A stretch of 64,000 nt of DNA from assembly GCA_951812955.1 (NCBI GenBank), contig OX638340.1, positions 2,656,001 to 2,720,000 of the forward strand, in the 5' to 3' direction. Origin of the DNA: an uncultured Gemmatimonadota bacterium. GTDB taxonomy: Bacteria > JAAXHH01. The translations under genes were made by a program, and so were the position numbers. Numbering within the stretch: position 1 is the stretch's first letter; each line of letters starts with the position of its first letter. The notes below the pieces were generated by a model. That model was not told the origin of the DNA. It did no database searches and was given only the letters and a program-made list of their open reading frames with translations. Below, piece by piece: positions 15,684-53,509 of the stretch.

Positions 15684-16781
15684 TTACGCCTCGGTTAAAC
15701 TCAAATCCGTGATTGCTGCAATAAATCTCTCGGACACTGCTCGTGCGAGTCTGTTTTCTCGGTCATTTTCCGGATTCAAAGAAGCTACCATAAGTACAGC
15801 CTGGATAAAATAACGTAGCATGGCGAGACGGTAGTCTTTCCAGCAATCATCCAAGGTGTATCCTCTGACTCCATTGGCCTTCAGGGTTTCATGGTAGAAT
15901 TTAAGGAGTTGGCGTTCTTCGGCTTGTCGTTTTGGTGTGGTTTTTAAACATCCACCGATATACCATGCGATATCCGAAACGCCCTCTCCGCACGATACGT
16001 CCTGCCAGTCGATCACGGCGAAGCCCGGCTCTCCAAGAGAAGCACCAAAAAACACGTTCTCCAAACGAAAATCTCCGTGAACCATGGTTCTCGGCGGTTT
16101 ACCCAATTGGGATTCATTTTTTAACTTCTCGGGTAATTGTTTTCCAAATGTCTTGACTGCATCCGTCATCAAGTCTTCAGTTTTATCGGCAAAGACTGGA
16201 AAAGCTTCTTTATACTGATCAAGGATCCAATTCGAAACAGCGTCAGAATCCTTCGGCGAATTCGCCAGCCAATCAAACGCTTCGAGTCTTTTGTTTTCCC
16301 ACCAATAGGCGTGAAACCTGGCTATTTCGTGGAGAGCATGTGCCGTCTCTTTCATTGTACTTCCACTGATTTGATCTCCAACTTTCGCGGGAGCAAGGTC
16401 TTCAAGAATCCTGATGTACTTTCCATGAGTAACACTCATCGCACTGAAATAACAGAGGGGTGTGCGAAGGGGTATCTCGCTGGCAATTTGCTGATAAAAC
16501 AAAATCTCGCACTTATCTGGTGTAGGTAGACGCGTTTTTGCTCGTAGAGGCTCATCTGGTGCATGTAGTTTGGCAATCAGCTTTTTGGGCAGTTCTGATT
16601 GAGGTTGATTAAAGCCAAGGTGCAAGCGTGCTAACTGTCCGTCACAAGTCAATTCTGCAATCGGCTCGATACGAAGCGAGGCTATACCGACATTCGAAAA
16701 CGTATTTGTTGAAACTAGTGCTGCGGTGAGCCAATGAGATGTTATATCCAGAGGTGTATTGGGAATACTCAAAAGAGTCAT
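15684..16781 (-). CDS. Phosphotransferase-family protein (APH/choline-kinase/EcKL-like kinase fold), 365 aa, lower GC
   Basis: Brenner motif MVHGDFRLENVFF (HxDxxxxN) and FAVIDWQD (DxD-like). HAYWWE is shared with the paralog at 56166-57263. AT-richer than the surroundings. Confidence 0.75.
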   Translation of the reverse strand: MTLLSIPNTPLDITSHWLTAALVSTNTFSNVGIASLRIEPIAELTCDGQLARLHLGFNQPQSELPKKLIAKLHAPDEPLRAKTRLPTPDKCEILFYQQIASEIPLRTPLCYFSAMSVTHGKYIRILEDLAPAKVGDQISGSTMKETAHALHEIARFHAYWWENKRLEAFDWLANSPKDSDAVSNWILDQYKEAFPVFADKTEDLMTDAVKTFGKQLPEKLKNESQLGKPPRTMVHGDFRLENVFFGASLGEPGFAVIDWQDVSCGEGVSDIAWYIGGCLKTTPKRQAEERQLLKFYHETLKANGVRGYTLDDCWKDYRLAMLRYFIQAVLMVASLNPENDRENRLARAVSERFIAAITDLSLTEA

Positions 16782-22577: not shown

Positions 22578-23441
22578 TCACCCGACCAGGCGGCGCAGGT
22601 ATTCGCAGTACGCGTTGTCTTCCACATAATTTCCGATCTTCAGCACCTGGTCCCGGTCGATGTACCCCTTCCGGTAGGCGATTTCTTCGACGCAGCCGAT
22701 CTTCAAGCCCTGCCGGTGTTCGACGGCCTGGACGAAATTGCTCGCCTCCAGCAGGCTTTCCGGCGTGCCGGTATCCATCCAGACGATCCCTTCGTCGAAC
22801 CGCTCCACCTTCAGCTTGCCCCGCTGGAGATAGATGTTATTCACATCGGTGATCTCGAGTTCTCCGCGGCCCGATGGCCGCAGCGTTTTTGCAATGAATA
22901 CGACTTCGTTGTCGTAGAAGTAGAGCCCCGTGACGGCGTAGTTGGATCGTGGATTGCGGGGTTTCTCTTCAATGCCGACGACGCGCTCGTGCTCGTCGAA
23001 TTCGACCACGCCGTACCGTTCGGGCTCCTTGACGTAGCAGGCGAAGACCAGTCCTCCGTCTTCGTGCTGCGCGGCCTTTTCGACGATCTCGGTCAGGTTG
23101 CTGCCGTAGAAGAAGTTGTCTCCGAAGATCAGTGCACATGATTCATCGCCGATAAACGATTCCCCTATCAGAAAAGCCTGTGCCACCCCCGCGGGCGCGG
23201 GTTGTATGGCATATTCGAAGTGCATCCCGAGGGCGCTGCCGTCGCCGAAGAGCCTGCGGTACAGGTCGATGTGATCGGGAGAGGAAATGATCAGGATTTC
23301 CCGAATCCCCGCCATCAAGAGGACCGACAGCGGATAGTAGATCATCGGCTTGTCGAAGATGGGGATGATCTGCTTCGATATGGCCTGGGTCTGCGGGTAT
23401 AGACGCAATCCGTGCCCACCCGCGAGTATGATGCCCTTCAT
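22578..23441 (-). CDS. rfbA: Glucose-1-phosphate thymidylyltransferase
   Basis: MKGIILAGGHGLRLYPQT...KQIIPIFDKPMIYYPLS...GDNFFYG is a near-canonical RmlA. The track ORF extends upstream, but the ATG at 23441 (MKGIILAGG) is the conserved start. Confidence 0.85.
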   Translation of the reverse strand: MKGIILAGGHGLRLYPQTQAISKQIIPIFDKPMIYYPLSVLLMAGIREILIISSPDHIDLYRRLFGDGSALGMHFEYAIQPAPAGVAQAFLIGESFIGDESCALIFGDNFFYGSNLTEIVEKAAQHEDGGLVFACYVKEPERYGVVEFDEHERVVGIEEKPRNPRSNYAVTGLYFYDNEVVFIAKTLRPSGRGELEITDVNNIYLQRGKLKVERFDEGIVWMDTGTPESLLEASNFVQAVEHRQGLKIGCVEEIAYRKGYIDRDQVLKIGNYVEDNAYCEYLRRLVG

Positions 23442-23761
23442 TTGTGGTCTCCGGTTGTCGTAGGGGCGACTAGCACTAGAGGATCCTGTTTTAGGTGTCA
23501 TACACGCTTTCACAAGTTGAATTGCAAAAGATGGACAAGCGAAGAATCGCTGGACTGAGCACATCAGCAAAAAACGCGAAGTTGAATCCGGCAAGCCGAT
23601 TCTTTTTACGAGGCTACAAATCTGTTTTCGACTAAGTTTGTAGTCAAAGTAAACGCTTCATGCCGTAAAAAACACATGTCATTTTTTAAAATTAGAAACA
23701 ATCGCAATCGAAACTGGAGATAAACCACCCCTCATCGAACTCAAAAGCAAAGAAGCGACAT

Positions 23762-24650
23762 ATGGCTGATGACTCTACCACGACTGCTATACCACCAAAA
23801 CAACCGGATACGAGTAGTTCGATTGCAATTAAGTGGCTTCATTCCAAGCTTGTGGAGATTGAAGACCATACATGCATGGATGCGTTAACGATATTTGGTC
23901 CCATAACGGAAACAGTAGATCATCGAGTCAGGTTGGCGATCGAGAGTTTACCGAATCACCGCAACGGCTTGTTGGTCATTATCGATACACCCGGTGGAAT
24001 TGTAGAGGTAGCCGAACGTATTGTAACCACTATCAGGCATTACTACAAAGAGGTCAAGTTTCTCATACCTGATAAAGCGATGTCAGCAGGTACGGTTCTG
24101 GTGATGTCTGGAGATGCGATATTGATGGATCACTTTTCTTGTTTAGGCCCAGTTGATCCACAGTTGTATATCGAAGGCAAACCAATCCCGACGTCTGTCC
24201 TTTCTTATCTTGAACAATATGAACGATTTGTTCAAAAATCCATGGAAGGTACCTTGACGAGTGCTGATTTGGTTCTGCTTCAAAAGCTTGACGCTGCTGA
24301 CTTACGACAGTACGAACTGGCGGCCGAGTTATCTGTGCGCCCGTGATTGGCTTGTTCGGTATAAATTCAAGGATTGGTCCAAGCACAGTTCCACAGGGAA
24401 CACGGTTTCAAAAGAGGAAAAAACAATCCGTGCCGAAGAAGTTGCGAGAGCGCTTAATGATCAGGAAAGATGGGGTACCCATGGAAGGGGAATAAACCGA
24501 GAAGTTCTTGTCAAATTAAAGCTCAAGATTGATAATTTGGAATCCGATACTGAATTAAGTAGTCTAACAAAAGAGTATTTCTGGTTTTTTAGAGACTTAG
24601 CATTCAAAGAGGAGTCGCAAAGTCTTGTACACAACCGGTTATTCATCTGA
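23762..24650 (+). pseudogene. SDH/S49-type Clp-fold serine protease, disrupted by a -1 frameshift near 24325-24335 (N-terminal part 23762-24346; C-terminal part continues in the +1 frame to 24650); low-GC island 1
   Basis: The N-terminal frame has IIDTPGGIVEVAERIVTTIR...AMSAGTVLVMSGDAILMDHFSCLGPVDPQ (oxyanion and Ser nucleophile context of ClpP/SppA-class proteases). The second frame (SYLCARDWLVRYKFKDW...GTHGRGINREVL) aligns to the C-terminus of the intact paralog at 35429-36433 (VKSWLESYMFKGM...KSHSRHIPREEL). Confidence 0.55.
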
Positions 24651-24660
24651 GAGGAATATC

Positions 24661-24882
24661 ATGAAAACAAATGACAAACTTGTCCTCACTAAGGAACAAC
24701 TGGTTGAGAACCCCGCTGTCAATCCCGGGATTGTAAAAGAAGCGCTGAAAATGCGCCTTGAACTGGAGCGTTTAGGAGTATGGGATAACAGTGGGACACG
24801 TGTGGTATCGCCTTCCGAAATCAGGCCAGCTAAGAATCCCATCGGGAATATCAGACGTCGGTCTATTTCTCAAATCCGGTAA
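24661..24882 (+). CDS. Small hypothetical protein (74 aa), companion of the SDH-type protease; has a PGIVKE motif
   Basis: MKTNDKLVLTKEQLVENPAVNPGIVKEALKMRLELERLGVW... starts 11 nt after the protease stop. GAGGAA RBS. Homologous to the small ORF upstream of the second protease copy. Confidence 0.4.
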   Translation: MKTNDKLVLTKEQLVENPAVNPGIVKEALKMRLELERLGVWDNSGTRVVSPSEIRPAKNPIGNIRRRSISQIR

Positions 24883-25015
24883 TCCTAGCCTGCAGCCGTA
24901 TTATCCTCAGGTATTAAGTCCTTGTTCCGGATTCAATACCCATACTGAATGGTTTGATTAGGCAGTAGCGAAGAAAACGAGCCCGCCCGTTCCTCACCCG
25001 CTCTTCACCCGCTCT

Positions 25016-26065
25016 TCATCCACTCCTCACCCACTCCAGATCGAACCGGACCAACTTGATCGTCTCGTAGGGATGATCTTCTCCCCGTTCATAGAGGCAG
25101 GCGACGGTACCGTCTGGAAGCACGGCGAGGGATGAATAGGCGGACGGCCCGGGATGCAGCACCTTTTCACGTGGCCAGGATCCGCCGGCTTCATCGGAAA
25201 GTCTCACGGTCAGGTTACACCGCTCGTCCCGGCTGGCCGGATTCGAGAACAGCAGGCGGTCGCCCGCGCCGGGATACCGGACGAGGGCCGCCTGGCAGAT
25301 CGGTTCGATCAGCGTTTCGTCGTGGCGCTGGTTACGCCACGTCATCCCGCCGTCTCCGCTGACGGCGAACTGCCTGGTGCGCAAGGCCCGGTCGTAATTT
25401 CGCATGTTGAGCAGGACGTCGCCGTTTTCCAGCTCGGTGACGCAGCATTCGTTGACCTGGTCTTGCAAAGTCGTGCCGCCCATCCGCCAGGTTTCCCCAT
25501 GGTCTTCGCTGTATATGACATGAGAATAGTAGCGTTTGGTGCTTGCCTCTATGTGGTCGCAGGGTATCAGCATCCGGCCCGACGATAGCTGAATTCCGTT
25601 GCCCGGTCCGGTGGCGTACCACGTCCAGTCCGCGCGCTTCGCGGTGGAGGTGATATCCCGCGGTTCGCGCCACGTGCGGCCGTCGTCTTCGCTGGCCGTG
25701 ACCCAGACGGTCCGTGAGCCCTGGCTCGTCCCCTCGATGATCTCGGATTCGCGGTCGATCCCCATGTTGTGGGTCATGAGCAGCCATACTTTCCCGGTCT
25801 CGCCGTCTACCACCGGACAGGGATTGCCGCAGGTATTCCCTGCGTCCGCCCAGACCAGCTCCTGGTCCGACCAGGTGCGCCCGCCGTCTTCGCTCCGCTT
25901 CACCAGCATGTCGATATCGCCGGTGTCGCTTCGGCTGCTCCTCCGGCCTTCGCAGAAGGCGAGGACCGTACCCCGGGTTGTCGCGATGATCGCTGGAATG
26001 CGGTAGGTATCGTAACCTTCCGTGCCGCTGGTCCAGATATCGGATTGTTTACAGGAGCCGCTCAT
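25016..26065 (-). CDS. Exo-alpha-sialidase (GH33, BNR/Asp-box repeat)
   Basis: YRIPAI (sialidase RIP motif) plus four Asp-boxes: SEDGGRTW, SEDDGRTW, SEDHGETW and SGDGGMTW. Confidence 0.85.
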   Translation of the reverse strand: MSGSCKQSDIWTSGTEGYDTYRIPAIIATTRGTVLAFCEGRRSSRSDTGDIDMLVKRSEDGGRTWSDQELVWADAGNTCGNPCPVVDGETGKVWLLMTHNMGIDRESEIIEGTSQGSRTVWVTASEDDGRTWREPRDITSTAKRADWTWYATGPGNGIQLSSGRMLIPCDHIEASTKRYYSHVIYSEDHGETWRMGGTTLQDQVNECCVTELENGDVLLNMRNYDRALRTRQFAVSGDGGMTWRNQRHDETLIEPICQAALVRYPGAGDRLLFSNPASRDERCNLTVRLSDEAGGSWPREKVLHPGPSAYSSLAVLPDGTVACLYERGEDHPYETIKLVRFDLEWVRSG

Positions 26066-34199: not shown

Positions 34200-35069
34200 A
34201 TGTTTTCGGCTGGTACGACACGGGTGCGGTTGCCTCGGACGCTGCGGATCTGCGGCAGCATATTGGTCCTCTATGGACTGGTGTTCTGCCACTTCGGATG
34301 CGGTTCGTCTGGTTCGGAGGTGGATCCGAATGACAGAGAGGCCGTGGCCCGGGCGTTCTTGGACCAGTTGATCGAGGGCACGATCACGCCCGGAACGATC
34401 GGTTTCCACGAAGTACCCGAACAGTTCGTGCAGGATGGGAAGGCGTTGTATACCCGGTACGGCTGTACCGTGTGCCACGGCATGGACGGCCACGGGGACG
34501 GGCCGGTCGCCTATACGCTGAAGCCACCACCCCGCGACTTCAGGGACCCCGGCGCCTACCGCGTCGGCCGCGACGTGGTCACGATCGCCGGCACACTGAG
34601 GGACGGCATGCCCGACAGCCCGTCCATGGTGCCCTTCCCCCATATCAAGGACGAAGAGCGCTTCAAGATCGCCATGTACGTGGCTTCGCTGCAGCCGGCG
34701 GACGACCTGGAGATCGCCGGGACCTGGGTGCGGGCCACACCGCCGAACCGCGACGTTACCGCCGCCTACCTGGTGATCAAGAACCGGTCGGACCGGACCC
34801 GGGAATTGCTGTCCGTCGAGACGCCGGCCGCTGAATACACGGAACTGCATACCATGCGGTACGTAGACGACATGATGGAGATGGAAAAGATTGAACGCCT
34901 GGTGGTTCCAGCGCAGGGCGAGGCGGCATTGAAGCCTGGCGGAAACCACATCATGTTGTTCGGTGTGAAACGACAGATGGTGGAAGGCGATTCGGTATCC
35001 CTGACTCTGCGTTTCGCCGACCAGTCGACCCGGAACATTGTGGCCGAAGTGTTGAAAAGCAAACCATAG
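34200..35069 (+). CDS. Cytochrome c (CxxCH) - PCu(A)C copper chaperone fusion lipoprotein
   Basis: Lipobox LVFCHFGCGS. CTVCHG heme-binding motif. C-terminal PCuAC motifs ...ELHTMRY...MMEME...NHIMLFG (H(M)X10MX21HXM-type). Confidence 0.7.
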   Translation: MFSAGTTRVRLPRTLRICGSILVLYGLVFCHFGCGSSGSEVDPNDREAVARAFLDQLIEGTITPGTIGFHEVPEQFVQDGKALYTRYGCTVCHGMDGHGDGPVAYTLKPPPRDFRDPGAYRVGRDVVTIAGTLRDGMPDSPSMVPFPHIKDEERFKIAMYVASLQPADDLEIAGTWVRATPPNRDVTAAYLVIKNRSDRTRELLSVETPAAEYTELHTMRYVDDMMEMEKIERLVVPAQGEAALKPGGNHIMLFGVKRQMVEGDSVSLTLRFADQSTRNIVAEVLKSKP

Positions 35070-35212
35070 TACCTACAATATGTTGTGTGTAGTAGTGGAA
35101 AAAAGTACAACATGCTTGTCTAATAGGATTTATTTGGGATTTCACACCACAAACAACTATCTTATAGATACTTCCTCAATTCCGTATACCTATCCCCCTA
35201 GGGAGTATGTAC

Positions 35213-35404
35213 ATGCCTCGATCTGAGTCCAAACGCGTACAAGAACATGAAGCCATGCTCCAAGAAGCACTATCCCGTCCTGGTGTTAAAGAGGTCATGG
35301 AGGTTTATAGAGGATGGCTAGAATCAGACCAGGGAATGACCCCATATCGTGTGGCTACTAAGGAACCTCATCGGATCACGACAACTAATTCCACTAATCA
35401 ATAA
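35213..35404 (+). CDS. Small hypothetical protein (~64 aa), companion of the SDH-type protease; has a PGVKE motif; low-GC island 2
   Basis: MPRSESKRVQEHEAMLQEALSRPGVKEVMEVYRGWLES... has an AGGGAG RBS 7 nt upstream of the ATG at 35213. Aligns with the 24661-24882 product. Confidence 0.4.
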   Translation: MPRSESKRVQEHEAMLQEALSRPGVKEVMEVYRGWLESDQGMTPYRVATKEPHRITTTNSTNQ

Positions 35405-35428
35405 ACAGTGTGACGCGGGAGCTATTCG

Positions 35429-36433
35429 TTGCCAATCTGGAGCGAAATCCTTAAAGAGTTGACACCGACACAAAATGGACTTCCAGTTGATTTTGATGGC
35501 GTTCGAAGGAAATATCTACTGAAACTCCATCAGCACACGGAACGGAATGTAATTCTGTACGCCTCAGGATGGCTTCAAGGGGAAGCCCCTCCTGCGCTTG
35601 TTTCAATAAATGATGAAGACATACAGGCGTTCATGGAAGTTAGTCACGGTCTACATGGAGATCAGCTCGATCTGATCCTACATAGCCCCGGAGGTTTTCC
35701 CGAAGCAGCCGAAGCGATCGTTGCGTATCTGAGGTCTCGATTTTCTCATATAAGAGTAATTGTTCCACAACTCGCAATGTCGGCAGCAACTATGATAGCA
35801 TGTGCTGCCGATAAGATCGTGTTAGGCAAGCATTCATTTCTCGGTCCTACTGATCCTCAGATAATGCTGGCAACCCCTCTAGGTGTGCGTTCAGTACCGG
35901 CTCAGTCTGTCCTGGATCAGTTTGATCGGGCCAAGAAGGAATGTTCCGACCCAGCCAAATTGTCGGCTTGGTTACCGATGTTAAGTCAATATGGTCCGGA
36001 TTTACTGGTTCAATGTGAGACCGCGTTAGAAATGTCTAAAGTGCTAGTGAAGTCTTGGTTGGAATCGTACATGTTTAAAGGGATGGATGATCGTAAATCA
36101 AGGGCGGAAAACGTCTCGACGTGGCTCGCTGATCACATGGAGTTCAAAAGCCACAGTCGACACATACCACGCGAAGAACTTGAAGACCACCAGTTGTCGA
36201 TATCTAGGTTGGAAGAAGATACGATATTGCAGGACATGAGCCTTTCAGTGTTTCATGCAACTACTCATACCTTTTCCGGCACCCCCGCTGTAAAGATCGT
36301 CGAGAACCATACAGGTCGTGCATTCATAAAACAAAATGTTACTCAACCGGTGCAGGTTGCCATGCAGCCAGTCCAGTCGATAGAAGTTGCACCAGTACCA
36401 CTAGTAATGCCCGAACATAGTGCCGATAGTTGA
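35429..36433 (+). CDS. SDH/S49-type Clp-fold serine protease (intact, 334 aa)
   Basis: LILHSPGGFPEAAEAIVAYLRSRF...LAMSAATMIACAADKIVLGKHSFLGPTDPQ has the ClpP/SppA-class catalytic Ser context. Low GC. Inserted between the PCuAC and SCO1 genes. Confidence 0.65.
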   Translation: MPIWSEILKELTPTQNGLPVDFDGVRRKYLLKLHQHTERNVILYASGWLQGEAPPALVSINDEDIQAFMEVSHGLHGDQLDLILHSPGGFPEAAEAIVAYLRSRFSHIRVIVPQLAMSAATMIACAADKIVLGKHSFLGPTDPQIMLATPLGVRSVPAQSVLDQFDRAKKECSDPAKLSAWLPMLSQYGPDLLVQCETALEMSKVLVKSWLESYMFKGMDDRKSRAENVSTWLADHMEFKSHSRHIPREELEDHQLSISRLEEDTILQDMSLSVFHATTHTFSGTPAVKIVENHTGRAFIKQNVTQPVQVAMQPVQSIEVAPVPLVMPEHSADS

Positions 36434-37076
36434 ACCTACCCTAGGCGGCGGGATTCCCACTCCTGTTCGACGGTACTTCTGCTATTATGTGATTTCGATC
36501 TGCGCGGCCCTGCTGCTCATTCCAGGATGCCGCACCGAATCCCCTCCTCCGTCCCAGATCGACGTCCCCGCACTCCTGGACTACGGCGAACGCTTCGGCG
36601 GCGATTTCACGCTGACCGACCAGGACGAAGCGCTATTCAACCTTTCTGAATACCGCGGCGACGCCTTCCTGATCTTCTTCGGCTACACCTTTTGCCCCGA
36701 TGCCTGCCCGCTCATGCTCTCCAAGCTGGCGGCCGTCTACGACGTGCTCGATCTCGAACCAGGCCAGCACGTACGCACGGTATACATCACCGTCGATCCA
36801 TCGCGCGACACGCCCGAGCAACTCAGAGAGTACCTGGCCTACTTCTCCACGGTGGACGTCCGCGGCCTGACGGGATCGCGGGAGGAGATCGACGAGGTCG
36901 CCGAACGGTACGGCGTGCTGTACAAACTGCAGGAGCCGAACGAGGCGGGGCACTACCTGGTGGCCCACACCACCACCCTGTTCCTGGTGGATACGGAGGG
37001 CCGCCTGCGTTTCCGGTTCCATCCAAGCGACACCCCGGAATACATCGCGGCGGGCGTGAAACTGCTCTTCGAATAG
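36420..37076 (+). CDS. SCO1/SenC-family copper chaperone (thioredoxin fold), lipoprotein
   Basis: FGYTFCPDACP (CxxxC) and HTTTLFLVD (conserved His). Lipobox LLLIPGC. The start overlaps the protease stop by 14 nt, so its exact start is uncertain. Confidence 0.8.
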   Translation: MPIVEPTLGGGIPTPVRRYFCYYVISICAALLLIPGCRTESPPPSQIDVPALLDYGERFGGDFTLTDQDEALFNLSEYRGDAFLIFFGYTFCPDACPLMLSKLAAVYDVLDLEPGQHVRTVYITVDPSRDTPEQLREYLAYFSTVDVRGLTGSREEIDEVAERYGVLYKLQEPNEAGHYLVAHTTTLFLVDTEGRLRFRFHPSDTPEYIAAGVKLLFE

Positions 37077-53123: not shown

Positions 53124-53309
53124 GATGTCGAGTTCAGTTCAGGCGATATAGAGTGGGTGCAATTGCACAAGAAAAAGTAACAAATAAAACTGTATTCAAC
53201 CGCTTGATTAGAATCCTTGTTAAGACTGGCAGCAGACCCTTTTCACTTGACTTGAAAGACCTCTCGCCCTACCATGGTGCAGTTGTTTAGGGAGATATCG
53301 GGAAGGTAT

Positions 53310-53396
53310 GCCGGGGTGGTGGAATTGGTAGACACAGGAGACTTAAAATCTCCCGGACCTCAATAGTCCGTGCCGGTTCGAGTCCGGCCCTCGGCA
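53310..53396 (+). tRNA. tRNA-Leu (anticodon UAA), type II with a long variable arm
   Basis: GCCGGGGTGGTGGAATTGGTAGACACAGGAGACTTAAAATCTCC...GGTTCGAGTCCGGCCCTCGGCA. The anticodon loop cuUAAaa reads UAA. Acceptor stem has one G-U pair. No encoded CCA. Confidence 0.85.
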
Positions 53397-53435
53397 TTCG
53401 GGGTCGTGAACAAACTGGTGAATGCTGGATATGCA

Positions 53436-53509
53436 GGGCGCTTAGCTCAGATGGTTAGAGTGCCACGTTGACATCGTGGAGGTCAGTGGTTCGATCCCAC
53501 TAGCGCCCA
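53436..53509 (+). tRNA. tRNA-Val (anticodon GAC)
   Basis: GGGCGCTTAGCTCAGATGGTTAGAGTGCCACGTTGACATCGTGGAGGTCAGTGGTTCGATCCCACTAGCGCCCA. The anticodon loop ttGACat reads GAC. T-loop GGTTCGATCC. Confidence 0.85.

Follow-up and report, generated by a model that had tools for sequence, protein, structure and literature searches.

Next to each of two genes for ClpP-fold serine proteases of the SDH type in this stretch of DNA lies a short open reading frame, and the locus raises the question of whether each small protein belongs functionally with its protease and whether the two are copies of one companion gene. The preliminary description held that they are one conserved family, kept beside the protease in flipped gene order. 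The window, by which we mean the whole 64,000-nucleotide stretch analysed here, carries the two pairs as cassettes 1 and 2. The small ORFs and their order stand as described: ORF A lies downstream of its protease (family 1), and ORF B lies upstream of its protease (family 2). The two cassettes and their genes are laid out as follows.

23440 to 24960, no strand assigned: low-GC island 1, holding cassette 1, with a GC content of about 0.38-0.46 against flanks of about 0.62 in the composition profile.
23762 to 24346, plus strand: family-1 protease (SDH-type ClpP-fold serine protease, PF01972), N-terminal part of 194 codons, cut off by a premature stop.
24661 to 24882, plus strand: ORF A, 73 aa, from the ATG at 24661 to the TAA at 24880-24882, exactly the peptide quoted in the preliminary description.
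35070 to 36430, no strand assigned: low-GC island 2, holding cassette 2, with a GC content of about 0.42-0.49 in the composition profile.
35213 to 35404, plus strand: ORF B, 63 aa, the upstream partner of the family-2 protease, as traced by HMM matches across loci.
35429 to 36433, plus strand: family-2 protease, 334 aa, intact; an SDH-type ClpP-fold serine protease, PF01972.

Both small ORFs are genuine genes. ORF A starts after a gap of 11 nt from the stop of its protease gene (23762-24650, PF01972), and a Shine-Dalgarno-like GAGGA stands 6-7 nt 5' of its ATG. It has 6 close homologues among 5.8 billion proteins, all 6 of them syntenic, and is under purifying selection, with a dN/dS of 0.11-0.25 against its orthologues. 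ORF B ends with a gap of 24 nt before its PF01972 protease gene (35429-36433) and has 4 close homologues in the same set of 5.8 billion; its family comprises 254 cluster representatives (50% identity) among 1.84 billion proteins, nearly all of them 50-130 aa long. A 1,713-aa match with 14 matched stretches (P0141) is a repetitive coiled-coil protein and was rejected as spurious. Searches of Pfam, NCBIfam, PADLOC and PDB gave no meaningful match for either small protein, and neither shows an HTH, RHH or AbrB fold or family match, a signal peptide, a transmembrane segment or a known effector domain. From the alignment alone, A appears to consist of a helix, the NPxVD motif, a second helix and G[VIL], after which YxLxPPLG forms an extended stretch and the tail is basic, with a family consensus of NPxVD...ELxxxGVxxxxxYxLxPPLG. 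The AF2 model of B (pLDDT 86.8) has helices at residues 7-21, 25-40 and 43-49, with an RPG turn between the first two and an extended tail after the third, so that B is predicted to be a helical hairpin plus an extended tail, without a DNA-binding fold.

The proteases next to A and B are paralogues that share 30-32% identity. The N-terminal part of the family-1 protease carries GG, the AMSAGT nucleophile motif and GPVDPQ, and the protein scores 62 bits against Pfam PF01972 (gathering cut-off 31.3). The reading frame of this gene is shifted because of a 5-nt deletion, and its second half continues in another frame.

24339 to 24340, plus strand: site of the 5-nt deletion, CG-----CC against CGACTCATTC in orthologues, placed by DNA alignment with the relatives L001 and L003.
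24340 to 24650, plus strand: C-terminal helical domain of the family-1 protease, in the shifted frame (RDWLVRYKFKDW...), with its stop at 24648-24650.

The two halves match consecutive stretches of the phrog_11747 profile and of the family-2 protease. The N-terminal part corresponds to profile positions 63-186 (E=4e-31) and is 32% identical to the family-2 protease (E=1e-18), and the C-terminal domain corresponds to positions 190-255 (E=6.7e-13) and to residues 192-275 of the family-2 protease (BLASTP E=9e-8). The family-1 orthologue is intact in syntenic relatives, where it is 297 aa long. Across both halves dN/dS is 0.05-0.23, indicating strong purifying selection, and the C-terminal domain, at 0.16-0.23 against orthologues, is free of long-term decay. 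Since the halves are still under purifying selection, the 5-nt lesion is recent, or possibly an assembly error. Cassette 1 of the window is probably inactive, with a frameshifted protease and an intact A.

The family-2 protease scores 68.2 bits against PF01972 (cut-off 31.3), and its match to phrog_11747 spans the full length (E=1.1e-87). Its modelled structure has the ClpP/crotonase fold, and residues Ser118, Asp142 and His242 are invariant in 83 aligned protease sequences, which makes them the probable, still candidate, catalytic triad of these proteases. The invariant His242 lies in an additional helical domain at the C-terminus, about 130 aa long, which ClpP, SppA and STOPP lack. Among structural relatives are the STOPP protease and SppA, whose crystal structure 4kwb has C-terminal peptides bound in the active sites. 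The fold likeness to STOPP is generic and ClpP-like, and several features set the cassette apart from STOPP/NfeD (1510-N) and SppA. Those proteases are membrane-associated, unlike the cassette, and use Ser-Lys dyads, whereas the cassette proteases have the invariant Ser118, Asp142 and His242 and their unique C-terminal helical domain; the STOPP partner is an SPFH-domain protein, and A and B have no SPFH domain. Against the NCBIfam equivalog model NF047768 the two proteases score 66.6 and 77, far under the cut-off of 250, and against Pfam NfeD1b_N they score 32.5 and 21.9 bits, under the cut-off of 40. No curated defence HMM of PADLOC-DB v2 is matched by A, B or the family-1 protease, and the family-2 protease has only a chance-level match there (E=0.027 over 26 residues).

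Whether A and B are related was examined by sequence and profile comparison. The preliminary description based their kinship on a shared PG[IV]-KE core, which corresponds to NPGIVKEAL in A and RPGVKEVM in B, a register that needs a 1-residue gap. The letters are present, and the match is no better than chance. Pairwise BLASTP gives no alignment of A with B at E<=100. With hhalign the probability is 0.43% for shallow profiles, 0.67-0.77% (P=0.07-0.085) for profiles of 69 A and 74 B sequences, and 1.2% at the cluster level; the best local alignment pairs 'ELxxxGV' of A with 'ALxRPGV' of B, which is a different register from the one proposed. In the proposed register (PKV against PGV) the profile-profile score is 7.2, where shuffled columns give 6.4 +/- 0.8 (p=0.16). 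Conservation of the motif within each family also fails on one side, as the B family conserves RPGV+E and the A family does not retain PG: the glycine of the A 'PG' occurs only in the window, orthologues having DPK or DPE at this place and the family consensus being NPxVD. Finally, in converged jackhmmer searches over 2,021 protease-adjacent ORFs the A set and the B set never merge, the search from A collecting 78 loci, all downstream, and that from B 84 loci, all upstream; the A HMMs match nothing in family-2 loci, and the B HMMs match nothing in family-1 loci.

A and B could still be diverged members of one companion family, which would make the cassettes the same module with its gene order flipped. 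Both have helices, a Pro-x-Val turn (NPxVD in A, RPGV in B), an extended C-terminal segment and a conserved aromatic residue, and the proteases beside them are true paralogues. Gene order is also not rigid, since some viral family-2-like clades have a conserved ORF of about 65 aa downstream and no small ORF upstream. Homology of these downstream viral ORFs to B is not demonstrable by hhalign, and the links between upstream and downstream viral clusters (E 0.002-0.008), found in an all-against-all hhalign of 14 small-ORF clusters, fail correction for 91 tests. With no significant A-B similarity by any statistic tried, at any profile depth, with family HMMs that do not cross, and with the PG of A unconserved, we consider a shared ancestry of A and B improbable. 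By these comparisons A and B belong to different sequence families, so that the single companion family in flipped order gives way to two different partner families, each with its own side of the protease. A short motif common to two small proteins beside paralogous enzymes is not evidence of homology.

The other part of the preliminary description, that each small protein is functionally coupled to its own protease, gains support from neighbourhood surveys and from co-divergence. For family 2, a protease alignment was scanned against one genome per species, which gave 80 loci whose proteases share 53-92% identity with that of the window. Their hosts belong to Chloroflexota, Acidobacteriota, Gamma- and Alphaproteobacteria, Binatia, Latescibacterota and Gemmatimonadota, and further to Dehalococcoidia, Bdellovibrionales, Planctomycetes, Verrucomicrobia and Nitrospirales, more than 12 phyla in total. 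Many of these genomes appear from their bin names to be MAGs of sponge symbionts. In 77 of the 80 loci the B HMM (E<0.01) finds a co-oriented ORF whose end lies about 7-31 nt upstream of the protease, and those further loci that were inspected by eye all have a B-like ORF, for example ...QPGLREMEIVYG... or ...VLDVLQVYGG...FSTTSSSN, so that an upstream B-like ORF is present at 80/80 family-2 genome loci (77 of them by HMM). The pairwise identities of B and of the protease are correlated (r=0.87, Mantel p=0.001), with means of 37% for B and 64% for the protease, and B thus evolves faster.

The intact family-1 orthologue has 1,548 homologues at E<=1e-10. A metagenome scan for family 1 gave 80 loci with proteases 41-52% identical, 77 of which have room for a downstream ORF; at least 64 of these 77 carry an A-family ORF directly downstream of the protease, starting from about -50 to +30 nt relative to its stop. 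Conserved small downstream ORFs are also found at 67/80 viral family-1 loci. The surveys show that ORF A is a family-specific downstream partner of family-1 proteases and that ORF B is a family-specific upstream partner of family-2 proteases. OZ242008.1 is probably a second genome with both cassettes.

Only one homologue of either small protein was found without a protease. It is a 54%-identical B homologue (L006) at the edge of an integrative conjugative element, on a contig of 1.68x coverage, with no protease within 6 kb downstream. ORFs of 208 and 131 aa lie 3' of it and were rejected as a split protease, as they resemble TraP and TIGR03759-family conjugative-element proteins. A B-first pattern scan of viral contigs for B without protease returned 38 matches, of which 0 are relatives. 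The converse case, an intact protease without its partner, does not occur in the genome set, and broken proteases beside a retained partner are found in cassette 1 of the window and at 8/73 family-2 loci. This asymmetry is not statistically compelling, the protease gene being about 5x longer than the partner gene. Judging by their names, many of the MAGs also seem to come from long-read assembly, in which indel errors are common, a caveat for the broken proteases.

These surveys bear on the reading that the small ORFs are transcriptional regulators of the operon or neutral hitchhikers that make no direct contact with the protease. In its favour, both proteins are small and helical and have one basic terminus, the N-terminal one in B and the C-terminal one in A, and one B homologue stands alone on the conjugative element. 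However, no HTH, RHH or AbrB fold or family match accompanies them, a hitchhiker would not persist, closely spaced and co-diverging, in 80/80 loci over more than 12 phyla, and A is under purifying selection; we regard this reading as highly improbable. The partner is shown to be essentially obligatory, specific to the protease subfamily and transferred together with the protease.

The surroundings of the cassettes show that each is an autonomous two-gene unit that moves horizontally between phyla. Across loci the cassettes lie on average 6 GC points under their flanks, and the flanking genes are not conserved. The islands of the window are about 1.3-1.5 kb long and have 38-49% GC, against about 62% for the genome. 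Island 1 is inserted between an NTP-transferase gene and a BNR sialidase gene, with the same insertion in syntenic relatives. Island 2 lies between a cytochrome-c/PCuAC-like gene and a SCO1/SenC gene, the start of which overlaps the protease stop, and the arrangement is identical in L007. At the island borders of the window we found no terminal repeats, att-like sites, tRNA genes or Rfam families. The window cassettes stand among housekeeping genes, with no recognisable defence island or prophage around them.

Elsewhere, the results show that the cassettes are common in prophage immunity regions and defence neighbourhoods. On viral contigs there are 171 family-1-like and 146 family-2-like relatives, and an S24/CI-type repressor stands directly upstream on the same strand at 19 viral family-1 loci, with an HTH/CI-type repressor at 6 more. 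Lambdoid prophages in 20/5426 complete E. coli genomes carry a family-1 cassette between cI and the ral/cIII/kil/gam/bet/exo genes, in the order P-O-cII-cro, cI, protease, small ORF and, further on, ral, cIII, kil, gam, bet and exo. The E. coli pair consists of WP_021518647.1 ('SDH family Clp fold serine proteinase' in RefSeq PGAP) and the 56-aa WP_167851737.1, which falls in a viral A2 cluster that hhalign links to A at 81% probability (E=1.2e-5). The slot after cI is, by the established lambda map, the position of rexA-rexB. In lambda, rexA-rexB are exclusion genes expressed from the lysogen. The family-1 cassette has the same position and orientation after cI in the E. coli lambdoid prophages as rexA-rexB, while RexA and RexB have no sequence or fold relationship to the cassette proteins and the window cassettes lie outside any prophage.

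Annotated family-2 cassettes occur in a Klebsiella prophage-like nin region, in a Mu-like phage of Shewanella and in a Gordonia phage. The Klebsiella pair is WP_008807825.1 and WP_032426283.1, the B HMM matching the prophage example at E=4.7e-7, and the DNA of this cassette has no match in E. coli genomes. A DUF1156 methyltransferase (Pfam PF06634, 105 bits; under the model cut-off of NCBIfam 'anti-phage-associated DUF1156') lies directly downstream at 10/80 family-2 genome loci. IS1-type transposases stand beside 9 family-1 loci, and on the Methylosinus plasmid pMSC49a a gene annotated as 'serine dehydrogenasease' precedes one for a hypothetical protein of 76 aa. An anti-repressor role for the protease, like that of ImmR/ImmA, was considered and rejected: most of the neighbouring repressors have an S24 autocleavage domain of their own, and as a general explanation it fails because a repressor is missing beside most cassettes, the two of the window among them.

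The context favours an antitoxin-like or inhibitor role of the small protein, without proving it. Our main reading, to which we give a probability of about 40%, is that the small protein is devoted to binding its own protease, which it most likely inhibits, within a cassette that works like a toxin-antitoxin or exclusion system. In this mechanism the partner would dock onto the protease through its helical hairpin, and its conserved extended C-terminal segment (YxLxPPLG in A; YRxA...TTTNSSN in B) would occupy the groove that takes the substrate. Proteolysis would be kept in check until a trigger, for example phage infection or loss of the cassette, removed the faster-evolving and presumably labile partner, and the freed protease would then cleave cellular or phage proteins. 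Such a cassette would follow a toxin-antitoxin or abortive-infection logic and could be expressed from the lysogen as rexAB of lambda is. Points on the side of the inhibitor are the gene architecture, the faster evolution of the partner, the presence of two cassettes with unrelated partners in one genome, the partners kept beside broken proteases, the family-1 cassette in the rexAB slot and the precedent of ietAS. The structural relatives also speak for it, SppA having been crystallised with peptides in its active sites and STOPP acting on the partner encoded in its operon. On the other side, toxicity of the protease is purely inferred, B has no DNA-binding fold, PADLOC gives no match, one B homologue stands without a protease, and the window cassettes lie among housekeeping genes; in addition, the conserved C-terminal motifs suit a substrate as well as a pseudo-substrate.

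This last point leads to the main rival of the inhibitor, namely that the small protein is a dedicated substrate or pro-protein that the protease cuts at or near the conserved C-terminal motif, releasing a peptide or an effector. Parallels are known in STOPP/NfeD, where the protease acts on its operon partner, a stomatin, and in prohead proteases with their adjacent scaffold proteins, and candidate cut sites are at hand in the YxLxPPLG of A and in the S/T/N-rich tail of the TTTNSSN type in B. However, A and B carry none of the signal peptides, transmembrane segments or known effector domains that were looked for, and an intact partner beside a broken protease would be an unprocessed precursor, so that the partner alone would be at least not harmful or useless. 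We consider a substrate or pro-protein rather doubtful. The two roles can overlap, as a slowly cleaved pseudo-substrate would fit both.

A partner that switches the protease on would be held to it just as closely. The small protein could be a positive cofactor that helps the protease assemble as a chaperone, brings substrates to it as an adaptor, or senses phage components and activates it. Strict co-occurrence and co-divergence suit an obligate subunit as well as an inhibitor, fast evolution of the partner is expected of a component that touches variable phage proteins, and the extra C-terminal helical domain of the protease could be the docking site. We found no known adaptor fold for the partner, and the data do not separate activation from inhibition; a positive cofactor appears unlikely to us, if somewhat less so than common descent of A and B. 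As to a single-chain form of either arrangement, no natural fusion of partner and protease was found among the best 150 of the 254 B-family representatives.

The inhibitor reading can be compared with the systems that the cassette calls to mind. The literature on PF01972, the SDH protease family and ClpP-like proteases in defence yielded no description of the cassette. PF01972, NF047768 and phrog_11747 resemble it in the protease only; their family descriptions include no small partner gene, and phrog_11747 is listed as 'unknown function'. The protease family is thus known but functionally uncharacterised, and the partners belong to no described family. A serine protease serves as the toxin in ietAS, a plasmid toxin-antitoxin system that is also an anti-phage system (PMC13069673). 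It consists of the subtilisin-like IetS and the AAA ATPase IetA, whereas the cassettes combine a ClpP fold with a helical partner of 60-75 aa.

With toxin-antitoxin systems in general the cassettes share co-oriented, tightly spaced gene pairs that are mobile on plasmids, prophages and islands, a small and fast-evolving partner that lies on either side in different families, and the coexistence of paralogous cassettes with non-cross-reacting partners. Adjacency, co-orientation, a small partner and mobility are the traits shared with type II systems, and a toxic protease neutralised by its partner would be a further one; the DNA-binding antitoxin domain of that type (HTH, RHH, AbrB, Phd) is absent from the cassette partners. 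The cassette would work like a toxin-antitoxin or prophage exclusion module, though it lacks the DNA-binding antitoxin domain and any match to a PADLOC model.

The preliminary idea of a functional tie between the small ORF and its protease is correct and generalises widely. At its broadest, the reading extends to a large and so far undescribed class of mobile two-gene immunity or addiction cassettes, in which a labile inhibitor or phage sensor would unleash a proteolytic abortive-infection effector. This class would be expressed from lysogens out of the rexAB slot, would have spread over more than 12 phyla including sponge symbionts, and would have recruited unrelated, hypervariable partner families of about 60-75 aa (A, B and the viral ones) repeatedly, on either side of the protease. 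We offer it tentatively, as a possibility less secure than the inhibitor role itself.

For the family, the finding concerns a large group of proteases that have been annotated by fold alone and small partners that have had no family assignment. Because the partner is essentially obligatory, specific to its subfamily and found in prophage immunity regions or near defence genes, the pair is a candidate exclusion or toxin-antitoxin system. An anonymous 'hypothetical protein' thereby becomes a testable candidate component of a protease-based phage-exclusion or toxin-antitoxin system, for which WP_021518647.1/WP_167851737.1 of E. coli and WP_008807825.1/WP_032426283.1 of Klebsiella are tractable examples.

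Cassette 1 of the window consists of a family-1 SDH-type ClpP-fold protease gene (23762-24650) and the small ORF A (24661-24882). Compared to the orthologues at loci L001 and L003, 5 nt are missing from the protease gene at 24339-24340, and the deletion splits the gene into two ORFs of 194 and 129 codons in different frames. Strong purifying selection is still visible in both halves, indicating that the lesion is either recent or an assembly error. Broken proteases were also observed among the family-2 loci, where ORFs shorter than 280 aa were counted as truncated or frameshifted. By this threshold, a full-length B gene, encoding the small partner of family 2, lies beside a broken protease ORF in 8 of 73 loci (L011, L046, L049, L060, L081, L084, L087, and L088), which could be true pseudogenes or could result from indel errors in long-read assembly. 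A lone B homologue (54% identical) with no protease is found at L006:653-868, on a contig with a coverage of just 1.68x. It is flanked by a thioredoxin gene on one side and by integrative-conjugative-element genes (TraP-like, TIGR03759, RAQPRD, DUF3487, DUF2895, and DUF3438) on the other. The B family profile also matched P0141 in 14 stretches in a representative search; this 1713-aa repetitive coiled-coil protein was rejected as a relative, and the match is a chance one amplified by the repeats.

Cassette 2 of the window, small ORF B (35213-35404) followed by a family-2 protease gene (35429-36433), lies inside the following region:

34200-37076, copper-chaperone-like operon containing cassette 2, flanked by a cytochrome-c/PCuAC(LpqE)-like gene and a SCO1/SenC gene

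The interrupted operon looks like a copper-chaperone operon. Its SCO1/SenC gene starts with a GTG at 36420, in overlap with the stop of the protease gene (36433). The relative L007 shows this arrangement as well. In 10 of the 80 genome loci, the next gene after the family-2 cassette, directly adjoining it, encodes a DUF1156 methyltransferase with a length of about 950 aa (for example, L022:3981-6818); in one paper, DUF1156 and DUF499 proteins are discussed in connection with BREX-related defence systems.

Additional small ORFs accompany the proteases elsewhere. Directly 5' of the family-1 protease, 17 of the 80 metagenome loci carry a small, basic, conserved ORF (for example, L125:2218-2496; ...KNPAAVALGRLGGLKGGKARAxxLSxExRxEIARxAAxARW) with no match in Pfam or NCBIfam, which could be an additional component of a three-gene variant of the cassette. 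In one viral clade with family-2-like proteases (L294, L305-L310, L314-L319, L320, and L324-L325), a conserved small ORF of about 65 aa (for example, ...LLYQQLNIP... or ...ELYKRCGV...) sits downstream of the protease, not upstream. In at least two inspected loci of this clade (L305 and L314), a further ORF precedes the protease, and by eye its C-terminus looks like an HTH or sigma-region-4 motif.

Three other features of the window were recorded:

15684-16781 (- strand), third low-GC island (GC about 0.46) with one 365-aa ORF containing HGDFRLENVFF, a motif reminiscent of kinases or phosphotransferases
24991-25036, 13-nt unit TCCTCACCCGCTC present in three imperfect copies, spaced by 11 and 22 nt, at the 3' end of the BNR sialidase gene, just outside island 1 (cassette 1)
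53309-53509, tRNA-Leu(TAA) and tRNA-Val(GAC) genes

The GC content is somewhat reduced (about 0.54-0.56) at 52-54 kb around the tRNA genes, and this region may be a further insertion hotspot.

Family-1 cassettes also occur in Escherichia coli. In 20 of 5426 complete genomes, a lambdoid prophage carries the protease and a 56-aa ORF of the A2 type (the viral cluster linked to A) directly 3' of cI, as in E. coli CE0007a (L334:4233-6074) and in a second example, L333. In lambda, this slot is occupied by rexAB. The E. coli prophage cassette provides a tractable experimental model.
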